Positions 2,972 to 63,931 of a stretch of DNA of 64,000 nucleotides are shown here, one piece after another. Source of the DNA: Minisyncoccia bacterium (GTDB taxonomy: Bacteria; Patescibacteriota; Minisyncoccia; UBA6257; JAAZHW01). A program made the position numbers and the translations under genes. Location: contig JBNASH010000033.1 in assembly GCA_049720475.1 (NCBI GenBank), positions 3,784 through 67,783 of the forward strand, read 5' to 3'. Within the stretch, counting starts at the first letter, position 1; the number at the start of each line of letters is the position of its first letter. A model generated the notes under the pieces. That model saw only the letters and a program-made list of their open reading frames with translations, did no database searches and had not been told where the DNA came from.

Positions 2972-3361
2972 TTATTTTTTGCTTTTATTTAAAAATTCTT
3001 TAATTTTAAAAATTAAATCATCAATGGAAATTTTGGCTTTAACAAAATATTCAACCGCGCCCAATTGTTTGCCTTTTTGAATATCAGTTGTTTGTCCAAG
3101 ATTGGAAATAATAATTACTGGTTTGTTCCTTAAACTAGGATTTTTGGAAATGTTTTCTAAAACTTCAAAACCACTTTTCTTAGGCAAAATTAAATCTAAT
3201 AAAATTAAATCGGGTTCAATTTCATTTAATTTTTTTATCGCTTCATCACCATCCACAGCGGAAATAACCTCCATTTGTTCCTTTTGGAGACGCAATTTTA
3301 AAAGATTAGACAAAAAAGGATCATCTTCAATAACTAAAATTTTAGCCATTGTTTCTGCCAT
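2972..3361 (-). CDS. Single-domain response regulator (CheY-like receiver)
   Basis: KILVIEDDPFL...DLILLDLILPKKSGFEVL...PVIIISN...K receiver signature. No output domain. Confidence 0.85.
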   Translation of the reverse strand: MAETMAKILVIEDDPFLSNLLKLRLQKEQMEVISAVDGDEAIKKLNEIEPDLILLDLILPKKSGFEVLENISKNPSLRNKPVIIISNLGQTTDIQKGKQLGAVEYFVKAKISIDDLIFKIKEFLNKSKK

Positions 3362-3430
3362 TAATTATATTATAAATAAAATAAATAATTTTTGACAAAT
3401 TAAATTGTGGATATCTTTGAGATAAAAAAC

Positions 3431-3460
3431 AAAAACCGCCATTTATTAATGGCGGTTTTT
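3431..3460. terminator. Bidirectional intrinsic terminator after the 16S trailer
   Basis: AAAAACCGCCATT-TATT-AATGGCGGTTTTT: an 8-bp GC core extended by A/T pairs, with T-runs on both strands. Confidence 0.7.
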
Positions 3461-3570
3461 GTTAAAAAATAAATCTCTTTTTCATTGTTTCGTGCCGCCC
3501 ATCGCTATTCTAAAAAGAATAGCGAACCGACCTAAGGACCTCATTCTCAGCGAGAATGAGCGTCATCCTT

Positions 3571-5095
<1,525 letters not shown>

Positions 5096-5208
5096 AAAAA
5101 ATTTGATCTAACCCCATCCGATTATTATCGAATGGGACTAATACAACTCAAAGGACGACACGAAACAATGAAGAAAAAATTTATTTTTTGTTATTAATGT
5201 GCTAAAAA

Positions 5209-5237
5209 CGAAAATGATAAATTTATTATCATTTTCG
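5209..5237 (-). terminator. 12-bp hairpin plus U-run between rpsI and the 16S (r-protein operon terminator or rRNA leader hairpin)
   Basis: CGAAAATGATAA-ATTTA-TTATCATTTTCG, followed on the minus strand by TTTTTAGCACATTAATAACAA (weakly boxA-like). Confidence 0.5.
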
Positions 5238-5245
5238 ATAGATTT

Positions 5246-5273
5246 ATTTTATTCTTAATTTTTCTGATGTCAA
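5246..5273 (-). promoter_or_regulatory. Sigma70-like promoter TTGACA-16-TAAAAT
   Basis: Minus-strand TTGACA (5273..5268), 16-nt spacer, TAAAAT (5251..5246). It sits right after the rpsI stop and upstream of the 16S leader. Confidence 0.45.
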
Positions 5274-5281
5274 GAATAAAA

Positions 5282-5788
5282 TTAACGCTTAGACCATTGA
5301 GGAGCGCGGCGCGCTTTCTTTAATCCGTACTTCTTTCTTTCAACCATTCTTGCATCGCGAGTAAGAAATCCTACTCGACGCAATCGTTTCTTAAAATCTG
5401 GATTGAAAGCAACCATCGCTCTGGCAATTCCCATTCGCACAGCCTCCGCTTGAGCAGATAACCCTCCTCCTCTCACTATAGCCGTTAAACCAAATTTACC
5501 AGGACATTTCATTTTTTCAAACGGGGCTTCAATCATTGCCTGCAATTTTTTAAAGGGAAAATAAACTTTATAATCTTTTCCATTAATCAAAATTTCTTTA
5601 TTCCGGGTATAAAGTCGAACAATAGCAGTGGCTGTTTTTCTTGAGCCAACGCCTTCATAATAAACTTTCCCTTTGCGTCCTCTTTTTTCTTCTTTAGTTT
5701 CTTCCTCTTCAGAAGTTAAAACTTCGGGATTTTTTTCTTCCGATAATTTATTTTCTTTTTCTTCTGTAGTAATTTTTTTCCTAGGCAT
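5282..5788 (-). CDS. rpsI: 30S ribosomal protein S9 with a ~40-aa acidic/basic N-terminal extension
   Basis: YYEGVGSRKTATAIVRL...GGGLSAQAEAVRMGIARAM...RDARMVERKKYGLKKARRAPQWSKR. Confidence 0.95.
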   Translation of the reverse strand: MPRKKITTEEKENKLSEEKNPEVLTSEEEETKEEKRGRKGKVYYEGVGSRKTATAIVRLYTRNKEILINGKDYKVYFPFKKLQAMIEAPFEKMKCPGKFGLTAIVRGGGLSAQAEAVRMGIARAMVAFNPDFKKRLRRVGFLTRDARMVERKKYGLKKARRAPQWSKR

Positions 5789-6125
5789 ACATCTTTAAAT
5801 TTTTAATTCTTTTTGACCGCAAACTATTTTTAGGCAACATTCCTAAAACAGCTCTTTTTAAAACCTCCGTGGGATTCTTCTCAAAAACTTCCCTTAACTT
5901 TTTTTCTTTTAAATGACCCAGATACCCTGTATGATGTCTGTAAACTTTCTGATAAAATTTCTTTCCCGTAAATTTCATTTTTGAAACATTTTCGACGATG
6001 ACTTTAACATTTGCCACTTTGTTAGGCGCATAATCAGGATTATCTTTGCCTTGCAAAAGAACGGCTATTTTTGAAGCCAAACGTCCTAATGGTTGATTGG
6101 TAGCGTCAATTTTATATTCTCTCAT
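5781..6125 (-). CDS. rplM: 50S ribosomal protein L13 (short form)
   Basis: IDATNQPLGRLASKIAVLLQGK...YRHHTGYLGHLKE...AVLGMLPKN. Overlaps rpsI by 8 nt. Confidence 0.9.
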   Translation of the reverse strand: MREYKIDATNQPLGRLASKIAVLLQGKDNPDYAPNKVANVKVIVENVSKMKFTGKKFYQKVYRHHTGYLGHLKEKKLREVFEKNPTEVLKRAVLGMLPKNSLRSKRIKNLKMYA

Positions 6126-9176: not shown

Positions 9177-10892
9177 CTAAATCGTTTTTTCATCAATTAA
9201 AACTTTGATTCTGTTGGGATTTAAAGGTGTAAACTTTAGGAATTTTGGCCAGATGTCTATTTCTACTTTATTGATAGTTTTATATTGCTTTAAAAATGAT
9301 TCGAGATTATTAACATTTTTTCCTGCCAAATTATTAATGAATTCAGATAAAGAAATTCTGTCACAGAAAACCAAATTAGCAGTAACAGGAAAAGATAAAA
9401 GTTTTTTATCAAAATCAAATCGAGCAGCGCCATAATTGAATTGATAACTAAATAATTCTTTATCCGATAATTGAGAATTGCTTTTTTGGGCTTCATTAAC
9501 AAACAATTTTTTAATATCTTCTTCATTAAATACCAAACTCTTCATCGTAATTTTAGCAGTAGCCTCAAATTGTTCTGCTTTTTCATCTAGTTTTGGATTG
9601 GTTGAAAAACTGACAATTGTAATTTGTTTCGCATCAGGCAAAACAATATCATTAGAAAGCAATTTACTCTTTAACTCTTCTTCCAAAGAAAGAGAAGCAA
9701 TTTCAATTAATTTACTTTTGGCTTGATTAATATCTGATTGACCAACTACTTTTGTTGTTCCTATATAACCACCGGTCATCGGCGAAAGAGATTCAGCATA
9801 AAATTTAGTATAGCGCGGCGTCCCTTCAAAACCAGGAATAGTAAAGGTTGTTGGGCCAATATTATAAGATTCGCCGGCTTGATCAGCGACAACTTCCGCA
9901 TCAATATAAGACGGAACAATTTTTCCATCCTGAATTTTAGCGCCGGGAATTGTTGTTTTGTTTACTAATCTAAAAAGTTTTCCTTCTTTTGATAAAAATC
10001 TTGTTGTTGCCACCAAAACCTGGGGTTCGGAGCTATAAGCATTATAAATTCTTATTGTACCCCTGGCTTTAGCTTGAATAGTTTTTATTTCGGTGGCAGG
10101 AAAGTTTTGAGTAATTGTACGGGAGAATTCAAAAAATTTTACAGGGATTTTAAAATTAGTTTGATCAATCTCGCTAATTCCAGCTGTTGCTAAAACTGGA
10201 ATTTGCTCGGACCAATTATATTTATTAGAAAAAATTCTTACTTCTGCTTTGGCAATAAAATAAATAAGGAAAAAAATGAGGAGAACAAAAACGAAAACGG
10301 AGGCTGACAAAATTTTGATGCCTTTTGTAATTTTAATTTTTGGCTTGAAAGATTTTTCTCTTTTTATTTCTGCTTCATCCAATTCAACGCCGCTGAAATC
10401 TGCTTCGTCAAAATAATCTGTAAAAAATTTTTTCTCAGTATTAATTTTACTCTCCTCACCTTTACCTTTTTTAACCTCAACTTTTTTGGGTTTTTCTGTT
10501 TCTATTTTTTGAATAATTTCTTTAATCTCTGGCAATTCTTCTTCTGATCTCACATCGATTTTCTTTTCAGTTTTTTTTCTTTTTGGTGGCTTAATATCAC
10601 CTAGAAAATTTTTTGTTTTTGGCTTAGGCCTGCTTATTTCTGCCATTTCAATTAATTTCATTCCTGCTTCTTTGGCCATAGCCACAATCTCCTCAACATC
10701 GCTACTAACAAAAAGTTTTTTATCAGCAGCAGCCGCTTCTCTTTTGATCAATTTGAAATTTAACAAAGAATCGGCGATTTTTGCGTTTTGCGGAATAATT
10801 AAAACAACGGTGTCGTTTTTAGAATTAATAATTTTTTCAACGACCTCAGAAACCGATTCAGTTATATCAACATAAATATTTTCTGCTTTCAT
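9177..10892 (-). CDS. Hypothetical membrane-anchored protein (571 aa)
   Basis: N-terminal cytoplasmic domain, Lys/Glu-rich linker, one TM helix (ILSASVFVFVLLIFFLIYFIA) and a large beta-rich extracytoplasmic part. I recognised no family. Confidence 0.5.
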   Translation of the reverse strand: MKAENIYVDITESVSEVVEKIINSKNDTVVLIIPQNAKIADSLLNFKLIKREAAAADKKLFVSSDVEEIVAMAKEAGMKLIEMAEISRPKPKTKNFLGDIKPPKRKKTEKKIDVRSEEELPEIKEIIQKIETEKPKKVEVKKGKGEESKINTEKKFFTDYFDEADFSGVELDEAEIKREKSFKPKIKITKGIKILSASVFVFVLLIFFLIYFIAKAEVRIFSNKYNWSEQIPVLATAGISEIDQTNFKIPVKFFEFSRTITQNFPATEIKTIQAKARGTIRIYNAYSSEPQVLVATTRFLSKEGKLFRLVNKTTIPGAKIQDGKIVPSYIDAEVVADQAGESYNIGPTTFTIPGFEGTPRYTKFYAESLSPMTGGYIGTTKVVGQSDINQAKSKLIEIASLSLEEELKSKLLSNDIVLPDAKQITIVSFSTNPKLDEKAEQFEATAKITMKSLVFNEEDIKKLFVNEAQKSNSQLSDKELFSYQFNYGAARFDFDKKLLSFPVTANLVFCDRISLSEFINNLAGKNVNNLESFLKQYKTINKVEIDIWPKFLKFTPLNPNRIKVLIDEKTI

Positions 10893-13984: not shown

Positions 13985-14352
13985 GACTTTCTTAGAATTT
14001 CTACTCTTAAAAAGAAATTTCCTTCTTTTCTTTCAGCGATTTCTTCAATTTTTTCTTTTCCGACCGCCTTTTCTAACTCACCTACTTTAACCTCCACAAT
14101 TTGCAAAAATTTCTTTAAGGGCAACAGTTTGAAAACATTTACAGCTTCAACTTTCAATAATACTGGTTTAACTAATCTAACAATTCTGTTTTCTCTTTCT
14201 AAAATTATTTCTCTTCTTCCTCTCTTCTCCATTAATTTAATTAAACTTCTTTCGATTTTCTCTTCTTCTTTTTCTATGTGAGCCTTTTTTCTCCGCAGCT
14301 CCACTAGCTGCCTCCCTAATTTTTCCAACCGATGGTTTCTATTTTTTCTCAT
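13972..14352 (-). CDS. Hypothetical coiled-coil protein (126 aa), cassette A gene 2
   Basis: ATG at 14352 is preceded by GAAAGGAGGCAAA. N-terminal Arg/Lys/Glu coiled coil, then a beta-rich part. Any resemblance to phage Gam-like proteins is weak and unverified. Confidence 0.5.
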   Translation of the reverse strand: MRKNRNHRLEKLGRQLVELRRKKAHIEKEEEKIERSLIKLMEKRGRREIILERENRIVRLVKPVLLKVEAVNVFKLLPLKKFLQIVEVKVGELEKAVGKEKIEEIAERKEGNFFLRVEILRKSIRQ

Positions 14353-14611
14353 TTTGCCTCCTTTCAATCTTTTCAATAAAATCTCTTAAAACAAAAAATC
14401 GGCGTTTTTTTAGTTCATCCTGCCTCTGCTTCAAATTAGCAATTTTTTCATTGATTTCGTATAAATCCTGCATCCATCGCAACCGACTCAACTCTGCCCC
14501 CCAAAATTCCTGTTTGCTCAATAAACTTCTTTGTAGTTCCAATCTTTGCACCTCAGTTTCCAAAAAAGCAATCTCTCTACTGAGTAACAAAATAATTTCT
14601 CTTTCACTCAT
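14339..14611 (-). CDS. Hypothetical coiled-coil protein (90 aa), cassette A gene 1
   Basis: ATG at 14611 is preceded by TTAAAAATTTAATAAAGGAGGTTTTATAAA. Heptad-like sequence LETEVQRLELQRSLL...ANLKQRQDELKK. Confidence 0.55.
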   Translation of the reverse strand: MSEREIILLLSREIAFLETEVQRLELQRSLLSKQEFWGAELSRLRWMQDLYEINEKIANLKQRQDELKKRRFFVLRDFIEKIERRQNEKK

Positions 14612-14656
14612 TTTATAAAACCTCCTTTATTAAATTTTTAATTTTTGCTAACTTTA

Positions 14657-39594: not shown

Positions 39595-39654
39595 TATATC
39601 TTATAATCTAAAAATCTGCAATTGAGCGGTGTGTATTTGAAAAAATCCGAACTG

Positions 39655-39760
39655 ATTTTGTGACTGATTGGCTCGGCGGGCGGAATTCCCTCCGAATATC
39701 CCTCTTCCGCCTACCTCGCACTGAAGCGGAAGCGAAAAGGACGATCTCAAATTTTTATTT
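39655..39760. other. GC-rich structured spacer (candidate ncRNA or decayed tRNA-like remnant)
   Basis: GGCGGA...TCCGCC and CTTCCGC...GCGGAAG stems share the TCTTCCGCC segment, so they are mutually exclusive. The minus strand ends in ...CCGCCCGCCGAGCCA. It stands out from the AT-rich flanks. Confidence 0.3.
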
Positions 39761-40123: not shown

Positions 40124-40834
40124 TTAGTAGTTTAAATTATTTTTAATAATAACCTCATTTGGCAATTCGGTTTGACCTGCCATAGAGCGACAATCTACTG
40201 CTGAATGGCCTTTTAATAAATCAGTGATTGAATTATCTAATTTTTCTTTCTTATCCTTGTTTCGTAATTTGTGCACTACATATTCGTATAAAATCCCGAC
40301 CGTAAGCGGAAGCAAAATAATATCGGGTCCGGCAGACATATGAAAGATATGACCCAAGCCATTGCCACCGGAACGCTCAAAAACTAAAAAACTATATTTT
40401 GCCAACGAATAACGCGGTTCTTCATCTTCTGAAAAAGTTAGGGGTGGCATTGGCAAAAATCTATTATAGATTTTGAATAATCCAAGCGTTGCATCTTTTT
40501 CCATTTGATCTAAGGTTTGAAAAATGATCTCATACAACTTTGGTGTAATCTCATTAGATTTTGATTTTTCGATTTCGTTTAAAAGAAATTTCCTAACAAC
40601 CTCTATCTGTCTATCATCACAGATGAAAAAGTATCGGGCTAAAAATAAGATATAACCGGCGATCAATAAGTCATCAGGTAAAAATTGCTCTTTGTATTTT
40701 GTTTCAATTTTTACAAACGAGGGGCCATAATTAAAATGCCACTCTAAAACATTGTCCTTTCGTTGAGTAAATAAATTTGTCAACCACCTAATTGGGGCGA
40801 AAATAATTGAAAATATAAAACGGAATATTGCCAT
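40124..40834 (-). CDS. Hypothetical protein (236 aa) with a hydrophobic N-terminus
   Basis: Long ORF tightly coupled to its neighbours (1-nt gaps). No family recognised. Confidence 0.5.
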   Translation of the reverse strand: MAIFRFIFSIIFAPIRWLTNLFTQRKDNVLEWHFNYGPSFVKIETKYKEQFLPDDLLIAGYILFLARYFFICDDRQIEVVRKFLLNEIEKSKSNEITPKLYEIIFQTLDQMEKDATLGLFKIYNRFLPMPPLTFSEDEEPRYSLAKYSFLVFERSGGNGLGHIFHMSAGPDIILLPLTVGILYEYVVHKLRNKDKKEKLDNSITDLLKGHSAVDCRSMAGQTELPNEVIIKNNLNY

Positions 40835-40835
40835 A

Positions 40836-41198
40836 TTATTCTTTGTTCGTTGTTAATCTATTACCACTGAAAGCACCAAAAACGACAGGAATATATAACA
40901 GCGTCATGAAATAAGCAAAATTTGCGGCTCTTTGTTCGGTGGTTGGCTCAAAACCATCATCAGCATATTGTTCGCAACCGCCATATACTGGATCAGATTG
41001 TTCTATGCAAGAGGGATTTCCCAAAGTGAAACTCGCGAATAAAGCAATCCCAGCACACCACAAAAGTCCTTTCCATAAAACTTTTTTAAGTTTTCCGTTT
41101 TTTGAGTTGTCGCGTGCTGTCTTCCAAGCAAACAACGCAACACCTGCGATTAACAGGTAGCCAAGTGCTCTAAAAATTTCATGAAAAATCAATTCCAT
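40836..41198 (-). CDS. Hypothetical 3-TM membrane protein (120 aa)
   Basis: Three hydrophobic helices and a Cys-containing loop (NPSCIEQSDPVYGGCEQY). Confidence 0.5.
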   Translation of the reverse strand: MELIFHEIFRALGYLLIAGVALFAWKTARDNSKNGKLKKVLWKGLLWCAGIALFASFTLGNPSCIEQSDPVYGGCEQYADDGFEPTTEQRAANFAYFMTLLYIPVVFGAFSGNRLTTNKE

Positions 41199-48663: not shown

Positions 48664-49077
48664 TTACCTTCTTTCCACATACAATCGCCCATCCGACCCT
48701 TGTCGGATGGTGAAAGTATAAGAATATCTGGAATACGAGGAATAAACCCAGAGGGCATCGCTATAAGCGAAGCCCTTTTTATCAATAATCTGAAGTGCTA
48801 CTTGAACGCCATAATAAGATCCATTCCATAATCCTCCAACCCATTTTCCGTAGGATTCCACCACCCCTTTCTCTTCCCCATCAATTAAAACATAAAAATA
48901 ATAAGGAGTGGCGTTGATTACAGTAATACGAGTCGTCTGGATGGGAAGATTGGTATCAACCGCCATCGTTATCCCCAGCGGGGTACAGCTGGAAAACAAC
49001 AGCAGAGCCGCCAACAACCCTAGCAATATCAAAACAATAAAAAATCTCCTTGCGAATTCTTCAATTAATTCTTTCAT
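48664..49077 (-). CDS. Putative lipoprotein (137 aa), cassette B gene 2
   Basis: ATG at 49077 is preceded by TTTAAAAGGAGGAAAAAA. Signal peptide with lipobox LLLFSSC. The mature part is Tyr/Gly-rich and beta-like. Confidence 0.6.
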   Translation of the reverse strand: MKELIEEFARRFFIVLILLGLLAALLLFSSCTPLGITMAVDTNLPIQTTRITVINATPYYFYVLIDGEEKGVVESYGKWVGGLWNGSYYGVQVALQIIDKKGFAYSDALWVYSSYSRYSYTFTIRQGSDGRLYVERR

Positions 49078-49103
49078 TTTTTTCCTCCTTTTAAATTTTA
49101 AAA

Positions 49104-49628
49104 TTAAAATAAAATTTCGTTTTTCCAAAAATGTCTCTGCCAACCATGGGTTGGGGGGACATTAATACCCATTCGTCTGGCCAGTTTAACAACTTCATAA
49201 TCTAAGGAAAGTAATTTTACTTTGCCTTCGCCGCCATTTTTGAGGGCAATGGCTGTCGCCACCACCCGAATATCTGCTATAGAAATGGACTTTAAATTCA
49301 TTTTTTGTGCCTCTAAAATCAAGCTGGGTACAATCCTTTTTCGATAGGATCCAGCAACCTTCCATTCGCCGGATCTAATTTTCTTTTCAATCTGTGGCCA
49401 TCGCCTTAACGCTAAAGCGATGGTTTTTTTCCACTTTTTAACCTCTCCCTTTTGCGGCTTAGTTTTTAGCCGCTTTAATTTTTCAAGATCGGCGGCATTT
49501 CGAAGTTCTTCCACTACTGCCCGCGGAACTACTATCTGAATCTCATCTTCTTTTCCCAACATTTCCACAAAAGCAAAACTTCTCAACAACATATTACTAT
49601 CAACAATCAAAAACAACCTTTCTTCCAT
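49104..49628 (-). CDS. PIN-domain protein (putative ribonuclease) with a ~60-aa basic insertion, cassette B gene 1
   Basis: Acidic quartet in the expected order: LIVDSN, VVEEL, IADIRVVATA, LLSLDYE. ATG preceded by AAATAAAAGGAGGAAGAA. Confidence 0.65.
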   Translation of the reverse strand: MEERLFLIVDSNMLLRSFAFVEMLGKEDEIQIVVPRAVVEELRNAADLEKLKRLKTKPQKGEVKKWKKTIALALRRWPQIEKKIRSGEWKVAGSYRKRIVPSLILEAQKMNLKSISIADIRVVATAIALKNGGEGKVKLLSLDYEVVKLARRMGINVPPTHGWQRHFWKNEILF

Positions 49629-49679
49629 TTCTTCCTCCTTTTATTTAATTTTTAAAGATCTCTTTTCTTTGCCGCCTAA

Positions 49680-50489: not shown

Positions 50490-51038
50490 TTACAACCCAC
50501 CAAACCACTTAACAAAAAGATAGCCATTACCAAGAACAAGCAAATTATAAGCAAGATGAGAAAAAATTACACTTAGAGCTGCTGGGGCAAATTTTTGCCG
50601 ATACCCGCCATTTTTTAAAAAGAGATAAGACCAGATTAATCCTAAAACGCCTTGAATAAAAATATTAAACGACGTTGAATGTTCAAGAGCAAATCCCCAC
50701 GATAAAAAAATAATCGCAATAATCAACAATAAATTTCCCAATCTTTTATCTTTTAATTTACTAAACAATGACACGAGTAAAGATAATGGCAAAATTCGCC
50801 AAATAACTTCTTCGCCAACTGAAAAAATAATTATTGTTTTTAAATTAATAGCGGAATTTTTTAAAAACCACATCCAGAATTTCGCAAAATAAACCTGTGG
50901 GAAAAAGAAATTATCAGAAATAAACGAAAAAAAATAACAGAAAAACAGCGTATAAATAAATCCAACAAGAGTAACAATCATTACCAAAACAGCTTTTTCT
51001 ATATTATTTAATTCGGTCAGTTGATTTTTTCCAAACAT
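50490..51038 (-). CDS. CPBP-family (CAAX/Abi) intramembrane metalloprotease
   Basis: EEVIWR (EExxxR), FALEH (FxxxH) and HLAYN (HxxxN) in a 6-TM frame. ATG preceded by TTTAAAGGAGGTCAAA. Confidence 0.8.
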   Translation of the reverse strand: MFGKNQLTELNNIEKAVLVMIVTLVGFIYTLFFCYFFSFISDNFFFPQVYFAKFWMWFLKNSAINLKTIIIFSVGEEVIWRILPLSLLVSLFSKLKDKRLGNLLLIIAIIFLSWGFALEHSTSFNIFIQGVLGLIWSYLFLKNGGYRQKFAPAALSVIFSHLAYNLLVLGNGYLFVKWFGGL

Positions 51039-51121
51039 TTTGACCTCCTTTAAATTTTTAAATTGCTAATTTTATTATAAAGTGTTTAAAAAAATAAAAA
51101 AACCCACTAGCAGGTTTTAAG

Positions 51122-51424: not shown

Positions 51425-51461
51425 TAAATTGGTTTTTTAAAAATTTTTTAGGAGGTAAAAA

Positions 51462-52463
51462 ATGAATAAAAAAAGAAATGAAAAAGTTTTTCCCCTATTG
51501 GAACCCATTCATACTATTCAACCAGATACTCTGACTGGAATCGTTTTTGGAGATGACCCTGAGATAGATGCCAGCGATTTTCCTTTAGTTTTCATCGATG
51601 CTGATGCCACTATTATGCCTATTACGCTTTTTAAGGGGTATGGAGAAATTGGTAGTGATGCTTTTGTTTCCAATTGTTTTTTATCCAAAGCAACCATAAA
51701 AGATGGAGTTAAAATTATTGATAGTAGAATTTTTACGGCGGTAATTGAAGAGGGATCAGTGGTAATCGACTCCACCATCGAAGGTTCAAAGTTTGGACCG
51801 GGCTGTTATGTTAACGGGTCTATAATTATGGAAAGCGTTTTCGGCAAAGAAGTGGTTGTTTGCGGAAATTCGCATATTAATTGCTCAAGGATTTATGATG
51901 AGGTTGTATTGGGACCACAAGTTGTTGTAGACAATGCTAAAATTGAAAATTTTTCTTATTTAGAAACCGGAGTAAAAATTATAGGACACAAGGGAAAAGA
52001 GCAAGCAATAGTAATTATTAAATCAAAGGTTTATATTGGGGCTGGTGCTTGGATTATTGGGCCGGCACTGATTGATCATAATTGTTACATTGATAACAAT
52101 GTTATACTTGATCCAGGAAAAAATTCTATTGGTATTTTTATTCCGCCATTTTCTTGGGTTCGAAAAAGCAATAATGCAGAAGGATATGAAATTTTAGAAA
52201 AGAGGGCATGCTATTTACTCGATGGGTTGTGGTATGTATCAAAAGCAGAACCGATAAAAATCAAAGAGTTGGTGGATGTAAAAAGAAAAATAAGATTATT
52301 AGAAGAAGAAGTTGCGAAAAAAAGAATAGATATCAAGGAAATATTGCAAGAACCAAATCATTTAACTCAAAATCAACCACCAGTTAGTACTCTCCTTGAA
52401 AAAAATGGATTGGAAAAATTTAGAAATTTCCTTCAATCAATCATAGAAACCCTGGTCAATTGA
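51462..52463 (+). CDS. Left-handed beta-helix (hexapeptide-repeat) protein with a C-terminal coiled-coil tail
   Basis: About 10 imperfect [LIV]-x-x-x-x-x repeats (VKIIDSRIFTAVIEEGSVVIDSTIEGSKFG...VYIGAGAWIIGPALIDHNCYIDNNVIL). ATG preceded by TTTTAGGAGGTAAAAA. Confidence 0.6.
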   Translation: MNKKRNEKVFPLLEPIHTIQPDTLTGIVFGDDPEIDASDFPLVFIDADATIMPITLFKGYGEIGSDAFVSNCFLSKATIKDGVKIIDSRIFTAVIEEGSVVIDSTIEGSKFGPGCYVNGSIIMESVFGKEVVVCGNSHINCSRIYDEVVLGPQVVVDNAKIENFSYLETGVKIIGHKGKEQAIVIIKSKVYIGAGAWIIGPALIDHNCYIDNNVILDPGKNSIGIFIPPFSWVRKSNNAEGYEILEKRACYLLDGLWYVSKAEPIKIKELVDVKRKIRLLEEEVAKKRIDIKEILQEPNHLTQNQPPVSTLLEKNGLEKFRNFLQSIIETLVN

Positions 52464-62810: not shown

Positions 62811-63605
62811 TTAATTTTCTTCTTGGAAGTCCCTCAGGGACAGGCCCCGAGGGTTTTTTTCTACCTCATCCGCTGCCCGAAGGGGCAATTCCTTGCCCCT
62901 TCTCGCCTCAACCACCCTTCTTTTTTCTTTTATTTTTTTATTTTTAGAAGGGGAAGGGGAGGCAGGGGAGGCAGGCTCCGGTGGTTGTGGCCGAATTAGT
63001 TGCGGTGGACGGGTTGGGATTGGGACTTTTTTAAGCCCCGCTTCCCATTTGGGGTTGGGAAGTCTCCGATCGGACTCAAAGAGTTCGACCGAGACTTTCA
63101 GGATTTCCTCGTCAACCTGACCGACGAGGAAATCCCGCAGGGATTCCTTATCCCGCACATAGTGCGGGATATCAATCATTACTCTCTCTCTTTCTAAGAG
63201 AGAGTAATGATTTCCCTGACGGGCTACCCCTAGGTAGTCCGCCACCAGTTTCCGGCCATGGAACCGTACAACGGTCCCATTCCGGAAAAGAAGTAACCAC
63301 TTCCCCACTTTATTGTTAAAGTGGGGAGTGATAAGTTTGTTCTCCCCAACCACTACAGCCCAGCCCTTGGGACCGGGCACAGAAAGGGAAATCTGAAACC
63401 ACTGGGGCTGCCCCAGTTGGGGCAAAAACACCCAAGGTTTCACAATTCCCCGCTCTACCACCACGCACGGCACTTTCAGCCGTGCTTTTAAAGGATCAAA
63501 GTGGACGCCCTGAAGGGCGCCACTTTTAATCCTCTCCAGAATGTCCTGCGGTTTGGGAATGCGTTCCCAAACCGCCCAGATTTTCAAAAAATTACTCCTG
63601 ATCAT
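62811..63605 (-). CDS. Hypothetical protein (264 aa) of the GC-rich island: beta-rich N-domain, Pro-rich linker, basic tail
   Basis: ATG preceded by TTAAAAATTTAATAGGAGGTTTTAA. Plausible protein composition. The ORF is overlaid by many perfect hairpins (see findings). Confidence 0.55.
   Translation of the reverse strand: MIRSNFLKIWAVWERIPKPQDILERIKSGALQGVHFDPLKARLKVPCVVVERGIVKPWVFLPQLGQPQWFQISLSVPGPKGWAVVVGENKLITPHFNNKVGKWLLLFRNGTVVRFHGRKLVADYLGVARQGNHYSLLERERVMIDIPHYVRDKESLRDFLVGQVDEEILKVSVELFESDRRLPNPKWEAGLKKVPIPTRPPQLIRPQPPEPASPASPSPSKNKKIKEKRRVVEARRGKELPLRAADEVEKNPRGLSLRDFQEEN
63101..63212. repeat. Three consecutive perfect inverted repeats (13, 10 and 16 bp stems) inside the ORF
   Basis: GGATTTCCTCGTC-N9-GACGAGGAAATCC (63101..63135); TATCCCGCAC-ATA-GTGCGGGATA (63149..63171); AATCATTACTCTCTCT-N7-AGAGAGAGTAATGATT (63174..63212). 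Confidence 0.9.
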
Positions 63606-63628
63606 TTAAAACCTCCTATTAAATTTTT

Positions 63629-63672
63629 AACAAGGTGTGGCCCGGGCCGATAGCCCTAAGGTTCACCTTGTT
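63629..63672 (-). promoter_or_regulatory. 5-prime-UTR stem-loop immediately upstream of the SD leader
   Basis: AACAAGGTG...CACCTTGTT 9-bp stem enclosing GGCCCGGGCC and GGGC-N5-GCCC sub-helices. A TATTGACTTTTT promoter-like box lies at 63701..63712. Confidence 0.5.
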
Positions 63673-63726: not shown

Positions 63727-63746
63727 AGCGGGCTTAAAAGCCCGCT
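63727..63746 (-). terminator. Intrinsic terminator with the stop codon in the loop
   Basis: Minus strand AGCGGGC-TTTTAA-GCCCGCT followed by TTTATTC. The TAA of 63734..63931 lies in the loop. Confidence 0.7.
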
Positions 63747-63931
63747 TTTTTTCTTTCGCCCTTTTCCTTCTTCCTGTCCTCTAGGACAGAAAGAAGGACC
63801 ATTAAAAAGACTGAGAACAGCATCAGTCCCCCAGTCAACCCCGTCCATCCAACCTTTTCCTGTCCCCACGGCCGAAAGGCGTAGAGAACCAGATTCTCAA
63901 TTAATAACAAAAACAATAAAAAATATTTCAT
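63734..63931 (-). CDS. Small 2-TM membrane protein (65 aa) of the GC-rich island
   Basis: ATG at 63931 preceded by GAAAGGAGGTTTTTTG. MKYFLLFLLLIENLVLYAF...GLMLFSVFLMVLLSVL...KKEKGERKKAGF. A TATTGACTTTTT box lies at 63989..64000. Confidence 0.55.
   Translation of the reverse strand: MKYFLLFLLLIENLVLYAFRPWGQEKVGWTGLTGGLMLFSVFLMVLLSVLEDRKKEKGERKKAGF

Follow-up and report, generated by a model that had tools for sequence, protein, structure and literature searches.

The loss of the anti-Shine-Dalgarno (anti-SD) motif from 16S rRNA has been surveyed in Parcubacteria by Tsurumaki et al. (2022, RNA 28:1041; PMC9297842), who detected the motif in only 48% of them. For organisms without an anti-SD, Amin et al. 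(2018; PMC6107228) described Shine-Dalgarno (SD) motifs as absent too (120 of 128), or else the loss as recent or an error. Bacteroidia, on the other hand, keep the anti-SD, hidden under bS21, bS18, and bS6 (Jha et al. 2021, PMC7797042; PMC13000453). The assembly GTPase Era, which binds GAUCACCUCC during assembly, is missing from most CPR (PMC10582724).

Here, we analyzed 64,000 nucleotides of the genome of a Minisyncoccia bacterium (assembly GCA_049720475.1, contig JBNASH010000033.1), referred to below as the window. A first-pass annotation of this DNA had claimed that its 16S rRNA lacks the CCUCC core of the anti-SD at the canonical position, and that this makes the AGGAGG-led genes found on the same stretch puzzling.

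The 16S rRNA tail

The Rfam bacterial SSU model RF00177 matches the minus strand from 5099 to 3569 over its full length and scores 1469.8 bits, where the gathering score is 50. The gene follows S13-S11-S4-rpoA-L17-L13-S9 and precedes a response-regulator gene (Pfam identification), and it stands alone, with no 23S found within the 64-kb window. Its extent and the features at its 3' end are as follows.

3569..5099, minus strand: 16S rRNA gene (RF00177 model positions 1-1533, 1469.8 bits)
3582..3605, minus strand: helix 45 (CACCGGUAGC-GGAA-GCUGUCGGUG), intact in the covariance-model alignment
3577..3582, minus strand: GGAUCA, conserved, 3' of helix 45 (sequence and model alignment)
3572..3576, minus strand: UCUUU in place of the anti-SD core CCUCC (model alignment)

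The minus strand from 3600 to 3571 reads GTAGCGGAAGCTGTCGGTGGATCATCTTTA, letter for letter as the first-pass annotation quoted it, and the RF00177 alignment bears out its claim that helix 45, the GGAA loop, and GGAUCA are intact. After GGAUCA, the tail is UCUUUAAA here and CCUCCUUU in the consensus of the RF00177 alignment. In a covariance alignment of the 3' end, the stretch ACCUCCUUu of the model is aligned to AUCUUUAAA with maximal posterior probability; the core differs from CCUCC by three C-to-U changes, and the next UUU is replaced by AAA. A string search of the pre-rRNA from promoter to terminator (5290-3420) found no CCUCC on the sense strand. The gene therefore has the GGAA-loop helix 45 and the GGAUCA of a bacterial SSU and lacks its anti-SD core, and the claim that this core is absent from its canonical position held when checked against RF00177, with UCUUU aligned there and no CCUCC in the pre-rRNA. 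The computed duplex of AGGAGG with this tail has an energy of -1.8 kcal/mol, versus -9.2 kcal/mol with the canonical tail.

Judged from the sequence, the anti-SD of this stand-alone 16S has very probably been truly lost, an assessment that we extend to the whole explanation set out below. The loss itself is correct as observed, and it is ordinary for the clade; calling it unusual was an overstatement, as loss of the anti-SD motif has already been reported for about half of Parcubacteria (PMC9297842).

Tails in related 16S genes

Related 16S ends were collected by scanning GTDB species genomes for the helix 45 3' strand plus GGATCA, which gave at least 100 loci, of which roughly half are Patescibacteria 16S genes. 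Further syntenic loci came from an rpoA-anchored search of metagenomes and assemblies, and the sequence compared comprised 64 kb of this genome and pieces of up to 21 kb of its relatives. By 16S and rpoA, the closest relatives bear the name Candidatus Paceibacterota, which places the genome among Parcubacteria/Paceibacteria-type CPR. Among the matches listed, the helix 45 sequence is identical across 53 Patescibacteria 16S genes, and their ends, which come from the first 100 pattern matches and are not an unbiased census, divide into 29 that are canonical (CCUCCUUUCU) and 24 without CCUCC. At least 12 different, unrelated tail sequences occur among these 24 variant ends, a diversity that indicates a relaxation of constraint and not a new anti-SD that is conserved. 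The split agrees with the 48% of Parcubacteria in which Tsurumaki et al. (2022) detected the motif. Relatives sampled down to about 85% 16S identity all have U(C/U)UUUAAAGG or a similar tail. The percentages below are 16S identities to the window.

L183: 96.8%, tail UCUUUAAAGGAU
L102: 90%, tail UUUUUAAAGGAU
L185, L186, and L069: 89%, tail UUUUUAAAGGUU
L034: 87%, tail UCUUUAAAGGAU
L036: 85%, tail UUCUAAAAGGAA, of a related type
L096: 78%, tail AUCUUUUUAGAG
L084 (Candidatus Paceibacter normanii): 76%, tail CUACAUUUAAUU

A comparison with the tails of related CPR 16S genes had been suggested along with the original claim; it identifies the variant tail as a lineage trait and not an error.

Relatives with rpoA of 72% identity or less have rpoB, not 16S, after S9. 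S9 and the response regulator, with the 16S between them, are about 1.9 kb apart in the window (3361-5282) and in L183, and about 2.6 kb apart in L185 (12059-14664) and L186 (6162-8767). BLAST of L185 and L186 against the same-species locus L069 gave two pieces, split near the 16S 5' end, and the 16S genes of L185 and L186 probably carry an insertion there. In five Patescibacteria 16S (L012, L055, L061, L080, and L098), the universal AAGUCGUAACAAGG just 5' of helix 45 is replaced by ..ACAUGAACAAGG, which suggests an insertion or an intron boundary. Patescibacteria-type 16S contigs were also seen in MAGs whose labels point to unrelated phyla, namely Desulfosporosinus (L023), Thermogutta (L057), Thermoplasmatales (L087), Humimicrobiaceae (L090), and Gammaproteobacteria (L001, L009, L012, L022, L070, and L080); these labels probably reflect binning contamination or mislabelling in public records.

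Translation starts of most genes

The window holds 63 to 66 ORFs, most of which have AT-rich upstream regions and no SD. Strong sigma-70-like promoters end 2 to 14 nt before the ATG of seven genes and 37 to 51 nt before that of four others; the former distance indicates that the seven genes are leaderless, a call made from promoter-like hexamers. Upstream regions and promoter positions thus agree with the earlier description of most genes as SD-less and many as leaderless-looking. The top enriched k-mers at positions -20 to -2 are TATAA and TTATA.

No variant SD for the new tail was found in these upstream regions: their complementarity to the tail is no better than to shuffled tails (z = -0.6), which argues against a co-evolved variant SD, and AAAGA and TAAAG are not enriched. 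Motifs complementary to AUCAUCUUUAAA were likewise tried as a variant SD and showed no enrichment, the sole fit being the S9 start (UUUAAAGAUG, -9 kcal/mol). Upstream of this start (5788, minus strand), positions 5789-5807 read AUUAAAAAUUUAAAGAUGUAUG, that is, the AU-rich motif that also occurs in the leaders described below, followed by UUUAAAGAUG, a perfect complement of the variant tail CAUCUUUAAA at -9 kcal/mol that is identical in L183. As S9 is the only gene with such a fit, it may be due to chance.

Coding regions do not avoid internal SD-like motifs, with 12 AGGAGG observed versus 7.8 expected and 32 GGAGG versus 31.4; internal GGAG is somewhat low. This lack of avoidance is weakly consistent with elongating ribosomes that have no anti-SD. 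At the 8-kb rRNA loci of relatives, which hold few genes, SD use is low in both the canonical-tail and the variant-tail group.

AGGAGG-led genes

Eight ORFs of the window (about 12%) have a perfect AGGAGG 4 to 9 nt before the ATG, and 55 of 63 ORFs do not. The hexamer is found eight times at a spacing of 4 to 10 nt and zero to one times in other spacing windows, and 14 permuted hexamers give counts of zero to two. An SD motif is therefore enriched before ORFs here, unlike in organisms that do not use SD as defined by Amin et al. (2018). The eight sites are listed with the relatives in which they are kept.

14621..14626, minus strand: AGGAGG 9 nt before the ATG of a 90-aa ORF (14339..14611); kept in L183, L103, and L185
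14357..14362, minus strand: AGGAGG 4 nt before the ATG at 14352 of a 126-aa ORF, inside the upstream ORF; kept in L103 and L183
49634..49639, minus strand: AGGAGG of a PIN-domain gene (49104..49628); kept in L181
49084..49089, minus strand: AGGAGG of a 137-aa ORF starting at 49077; kept in L181
51044..51049, minus strand: AGGAGG of a CAAX/Rce1-like protease gene (50490..51038); kept in L181
51450..51455, plus strand: AGGAGG of a hexapeptide-repeat gene (51462..52463); kept in L181 and L182
63612..63617, minus strand: AGGAGG of a 264-aa ORF (62811..63605, GC3 0.55); kept in L191, L192, and L193
63939..63944, minus strand: AGGAGG of a 65-aa ORF starting at 63931; kept in L193

The hexamer is kept at all 13 orthologous sites examined in relatives, so that the puzzle of the AGGAGG-led genes is real and sharper than first stated. 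In L181 (GCA_026415775.1), whose housekeeping proteins are 73 to 92% identical to those of the window and whose 492-kb contig apparently stops short of the rRNA region, all four SD-led orthologues keep AGGAGG, while TyrRS, IF2, RluA, and PolX stay SD-less. In L183 and L185, the kept AGGAGG and an anti-SD-less 16S are on the same contig. The SD of the 126-aa gene overlaps coding sequence and is kept in three codon contexts, GAA-AGG-AGG, AAA-GGA-GGT, and GAG-GAG-GTT (encoding RR, KGG, and EEV), which suggests that the RNA motif itself is selected. As read from these alignments, the AGGAGG sites are under purifying selection.

Among the four leadered genes with strong promoters, three have an SD. 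The extended leader tTTTAAAAATTTaAnAGGAGG is common to six of the eight SD-led genes. In the general form tTTTAAAAATTTaA(n)AGGAGG, this AU-rich leader is T-rich at -17 to -12, has A at -10 in all eight, and has T at -6 to -4. It was seen at the following positions.

14622-14642, 49091-49103, 49644-49656, 51050-51062, and 63619-63631, minus strand: extended AU-rich leaders
51430-51449, plus strand: extended AU-rich leader

The leader core, TTAAA-AA-TTTAA, is a near-palindrome and may serve as an operator or AU-rich enhancer. Over the whole window, the A/T leader motif is not enriched (11 matches versus 9.5 expected); 5 of the 11 are directly before AGGAGG.

The SD-led genes are clade-specific (a search of 5.8 billion proteins yielded just 3 and 11 homologues), and apart from the PIN, CAAX protease, and hexapeptide-repeat genes they are mostly without known domains (Pfam). 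They evolve faster than their neighbours (in L193, for example, 82% identity versus 99% for the flanking gene), and their mean GC3 is 0.38 versus 0.27 ± 0.04, rising to 0.66 in orthologues. Defence or phage cargo was considered and rejected, as PADLOC gave no match and PHROG one uninformative match. A clade-specific family of 264 to 287 aa has a GC3 of 0.54 to 0.66 in genomes with a GC3 of about 0.25. Its members are at these positions.

62811-63605 and 63734-63931: GC-rich family, window
10001-10834: GC-rich family, L191
10001-10864: GC-rich family, L192
2793-3605: GC-rich family, L193

Possible readers of AGGAGG in rRNA

A second 16S elsewhere in the genome, for instance one linked to a 23S, could carry the CCUCCUUU tail, so that of two ribosome populations the canonical one would read AGGAGG. 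In favor of this, each SD is perfectly complementary to the canonical tail (-11 to -18 kcal/mol), the sites are under purifying selection, as would be expected with a CCUCC-bearing ribosome, and the 16S of the window has no 23S linkage. However, in eight independent assemblies the contigs, 14 to 322 kb long, continue across this 16S, whereas short-read contigs would normally end at a near-identical repeat, and among the matches listed the helix-45 scan found two 16S loci in no assembly. Internal SD-like motifs are not avoided either, and CPR genomes typically have one rRNA set, which also counts against a second copy. We regard this explanation as improbable.

Wobble pairing with the variant tail is less probable still. 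The changes in the core are all C-to-U, which leaves G-U pairing possible: UCUUU with GGAGG would form one G-C, one A-U, and three G-U pairs, and only perfect SDs would be usable, in keeping with the fact that the surviving SDs are all full hexamers. The predicted duplex, however, has only -1.8 kcal/mol, and the core has changed further in relatives, to UUUUU in the tails of L185 and L102 and to UUCUA in that of L036, yet AGGAGG is kept on the same contig as the L185 tail.

Other complements were searched for. Within the 16S, the best sites for AGGAGG, GGCCUUCU and AAACUCCUUU, are in helices and have nothing special about them. Elsewhere in the window, no GATCACCTCCTTT-like sequence was found except the reverse complements of the SDs themselves. 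An intergenic element at 39640..39760, which is GC-rich in an AT-rich genome, was considered as a C-rich or GGA-rich small RNA and rejected, because Rfam gave no match and its folding is no better than that of shuffled sequences (z of -0.02 and +1.3). The minus strand of this element has GGCGGAAGAGGGAUAUUCGGAGGGAAUUCCGCC; on the plus strand, CCCUCC would be in a loop.

The pre-16S trailer

The annotation had offered a second option besides loss, namely an anti-SD reduced to GUCC and moved downstream by an insertion with two hairpins. The sequence in question is flanked by signals of pre-rRNA synthesis and processing, which are given here from promoter to terminator.

5246..5273, minus strand: 16S promoter, TTGACA, 16-nt spacer, TAAAAT (11 of 12 consensus positions)
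5153..5185, minus strand: predicted processing stem, 5' strand (leader), AAUAAAUUUUUUCUUCAUUGUUUCGUGUCGUCC (cofold)
3565..3571, minus strand: SD-like AAAGGAU (RNAalifold and pair counts, alignment A3)
3540..3560, minus strand: hairpin 2, CUCAUUCUC-GCU-GAGAAUGAG (7 of 8 pairs with compensatory double changes, six relatives)
3526..3539, minus strand: GUCCUU-AGGUCGGU, helix strand and GGUCG box (alignment A3, RNAalifold)
3503..3524, minus strand: hairpin 3, CGCUAUUC-UUUUUA-GAAUAGCG (compensatory changes in 4 of 6 pairs)
3468..3500, minus strand: predicted processing stem, 3' strand (trailer), GGGCGGCACGAAACAAUGAAAAAGAGAUUUAUU (pairs with 5185..5153 in cofold)
3428..3463, minus strand: intrinsic terminator 3' of the 16S trailer (16-bp stem, then a T run)

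In the cofold, a leader-trailer duplex of about 30 bp encloses the 16S, and its trailer strand is highly conserved in relatives. Such a duplex around pre-16S is the substrate of RNase III in Escherichia coli and Bacillus subtilis, and the trailer is removed during maturation; by analogy, RNase III-type cleavage of the stem is inferred here. Between the promoter, which is just upstream, and the processing stem, the 16S leader has a hairpin resembling a terminator, with a T run behind it (5209-5237, minus strand; CGAAAAUGAUAAUAAAUUUAUCAUUUUCG UUUUU), which may be an attenuator or an antitermination site.

Since the leader-trailer stem encloses them, the hairpins and GUCCUUA belong to the 3' trailer and not to the tail. 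Alignment A3, made of six trailers, shows from 5' to 3' the tail, AAAGGAU, a variable hairpin 2, G(U/G)(C/U)C(U/C)(U/G)AGGUCG(G/A)U, a variable hairpin 3, and the stem strand. The partner of AAAGGAU is the GUCCUU further downstream, with weak pairing to the tail as an alternative, and in the RNAalifold structure the helix of AAGGAU and GUCCUU closes hairpin 2. Pair counts on A3 give 91% paired cells versus 32 to 55% with slid partners, and double-sided changes occur in 11 pairs (seven of eight for hairpin 2, four of six for hairpin 3), with a covariation score reached by 0 of 500 shuffles. The annotation had placed the hairpin CUCAUUCUC-GCU-GAGAAUGAG at 3560..3540 and GUCCUUA at 3539..3533, and both positions are correct. 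Its other hairpin, UCAUCUU/AGGAUGA, fared less well: it can fold in the window (-5.4 kcal/mol) but is poorly kept in relatives, where four to six of its seven pairs hold and a count on A3 found no compensatory changes.

A GGUCG/GUCGA box within 70 nt of the tail was found, among the matches listed, in 24 of 29 canonical and 21 of 24 variant 16S genes. In these 45 of 53 Patescibacteria, the GGUCG/GUCGA(C) box, which is at 3526-3533 in the window, lies about 15 to 60 nt past the tail, whatever the tail type. Directly after the tail, 27 of 29 canonical relatives among the matches listed have AGGGAG or AAGGAG, which makes an SD-like element directly behind the 16S an ancestral feature.

For the anti-SD to have been displaced, the mature 16S would have to extend to GUCCUUA (3533), with UCCUU pairing to the AAGGA of AAGGAGG. 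It is true that UCCUUA equals the last six bases of the E. coli 16S, that an A precedes six of the eight SDs and so gives AAGGA, and that close relatives conserve GUCCUU. In the consensus structure, however, GUCCUU is paired with the AAGGAU of the trailer itself; it lies within the processing stem, in a part that maturation normally removes; relatives vary there (GCCUU, UUCCU, and UCCUG); it offers no partner for the invariant 3' GG of AGGAGG; and the adjoining GGUCG box follows canonical tails too. GUCCUU is better read as a strand of a trailer helix than as a degraded and displaced anti-SD, which we find even harder to credit than wobble pairing. We give next to no probability to an error of sequencing or assembly at 3571..3582 or to a 16S pseudogene in decay, the error being ruled out by the same tail type in eight independent assemblies and the pseudogene opposed by 1469.8 bits over the full model and by the gene's own promoter, processing stem, and terminator, conserved with compensatory changes.

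Proposed history of the loss

We favor true loss of the anti-SD. CCUCC would have decayed to UCUUU by C-to-U transitions, with the tail past the core shortened and changed. The roughly 100 nt downstream would be the pre-16S 3' trailer, composed of AAGGAU/GUCCUU around hairpin 2, the GGUCG box, hairpin 3, the stem strand, and the terminator. The loss may have been tolerable because initiation would be mostly SD-independent, with first cistrons largely leaderless (-10 box 2 to 14 nt before the ATG) and internal cistrons coupled, and because most CPR are without Era, so that a second constraint on GAUCACCUCC would be gone. Tsurumaki et al. (2022) report a link of anti-SD loss with the loss of uL1 (PMC9297842); no rplK-rplA region was found within the window, and the candidates at 40124..41198 had no Pfam match.

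A minority of clade-specific, fast-evolving, GC3-rich genes would have kept a perfect AGGAGG together with strong promoters and an AU-rich leader; the reader of the AGGAGG would be something other than the 16S encoded here. The remaining options are a putative non-16S reader (a protein or RNA factor) or a putative regulatory use of the shared leader. Put more broadly, and only as a tentative proposal, a clade in which an anti-SD-less 16S is the only one detectable may keep, by purifying selection, a small regulon of genes that evolve fast, with the leader UUUAAAAAUUUAA-n-AGGAGG at SD-like spacing, served by a non-16S reader, a repurposed regulatory site, or a second specialised ribosome population.

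Comparison with known systems

With this loss, a trait known from Parcubacteria gains one more well-documented case. As in the anti-SD-less Parcubacteria of Tsurumaki et al., there is no CCUCCU at the 16S 3' end, the absence is lineage-wide, and the ribosome is otherwise typical of the group (PMC9297842). That survey covers the presence or absence of the motif, without tail sequences, trailer anatomy, or an analysis of SD use (PMC9297842); what is added here is the anatomy, namely the tail variants, a covarying pre-16S trailer, and the processing stem. The rule from published surveys, no anti-SD and no SD, conflicts with a selected AGGAGG next to an absent anti-SD. If complete genomes hold one 16S, the clade would offer a natural test of SD-like elements working without 16S pairing versus a regulatory takeover.

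With E. coli and B. subtilis pre-16S, the locus shares a long leader-trailer duplex that encloses the 16S, here predicted from sequence. Unlike in those bacteria, the spacer from the mature end to the stem is long, about 70 to 75 nt, and carries two covarying hairpins and an internal helix of SD-like and anti-SD-like strands.

Mammalian mitochondrial 12S rRNA also combines a missing anti-SD with leaderless initiation (PMC10582724), but in an organelle and without a residual class of SD-led genes. Bacteroidia, with their "SD-blind" ribosomes, resemble the window in a genome that is almost SD-free and has very few strong-SD genes, rpsU in their case (PMC7797042; PMC13000453). They retain the anti-SD in their 16S, which the window does not, and as the sequence itself is gone here, the autoregulatory logic of Bacteroidia cannot apply as described. 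The loss also has a parallel in Chryseobacterium, Elizabethkingia, Blattabacterium, some Mycoplasma, and Carsonella, in which CCUCC is lost, most genes are SD-less, and there is no variant SD (Lim 2012; PMC6107228). Unlike those anti-SD-less bacteria, the genome described here keeps a perfect AGGAGG before about 12% of its ORFs in the window, conserved across relatives.
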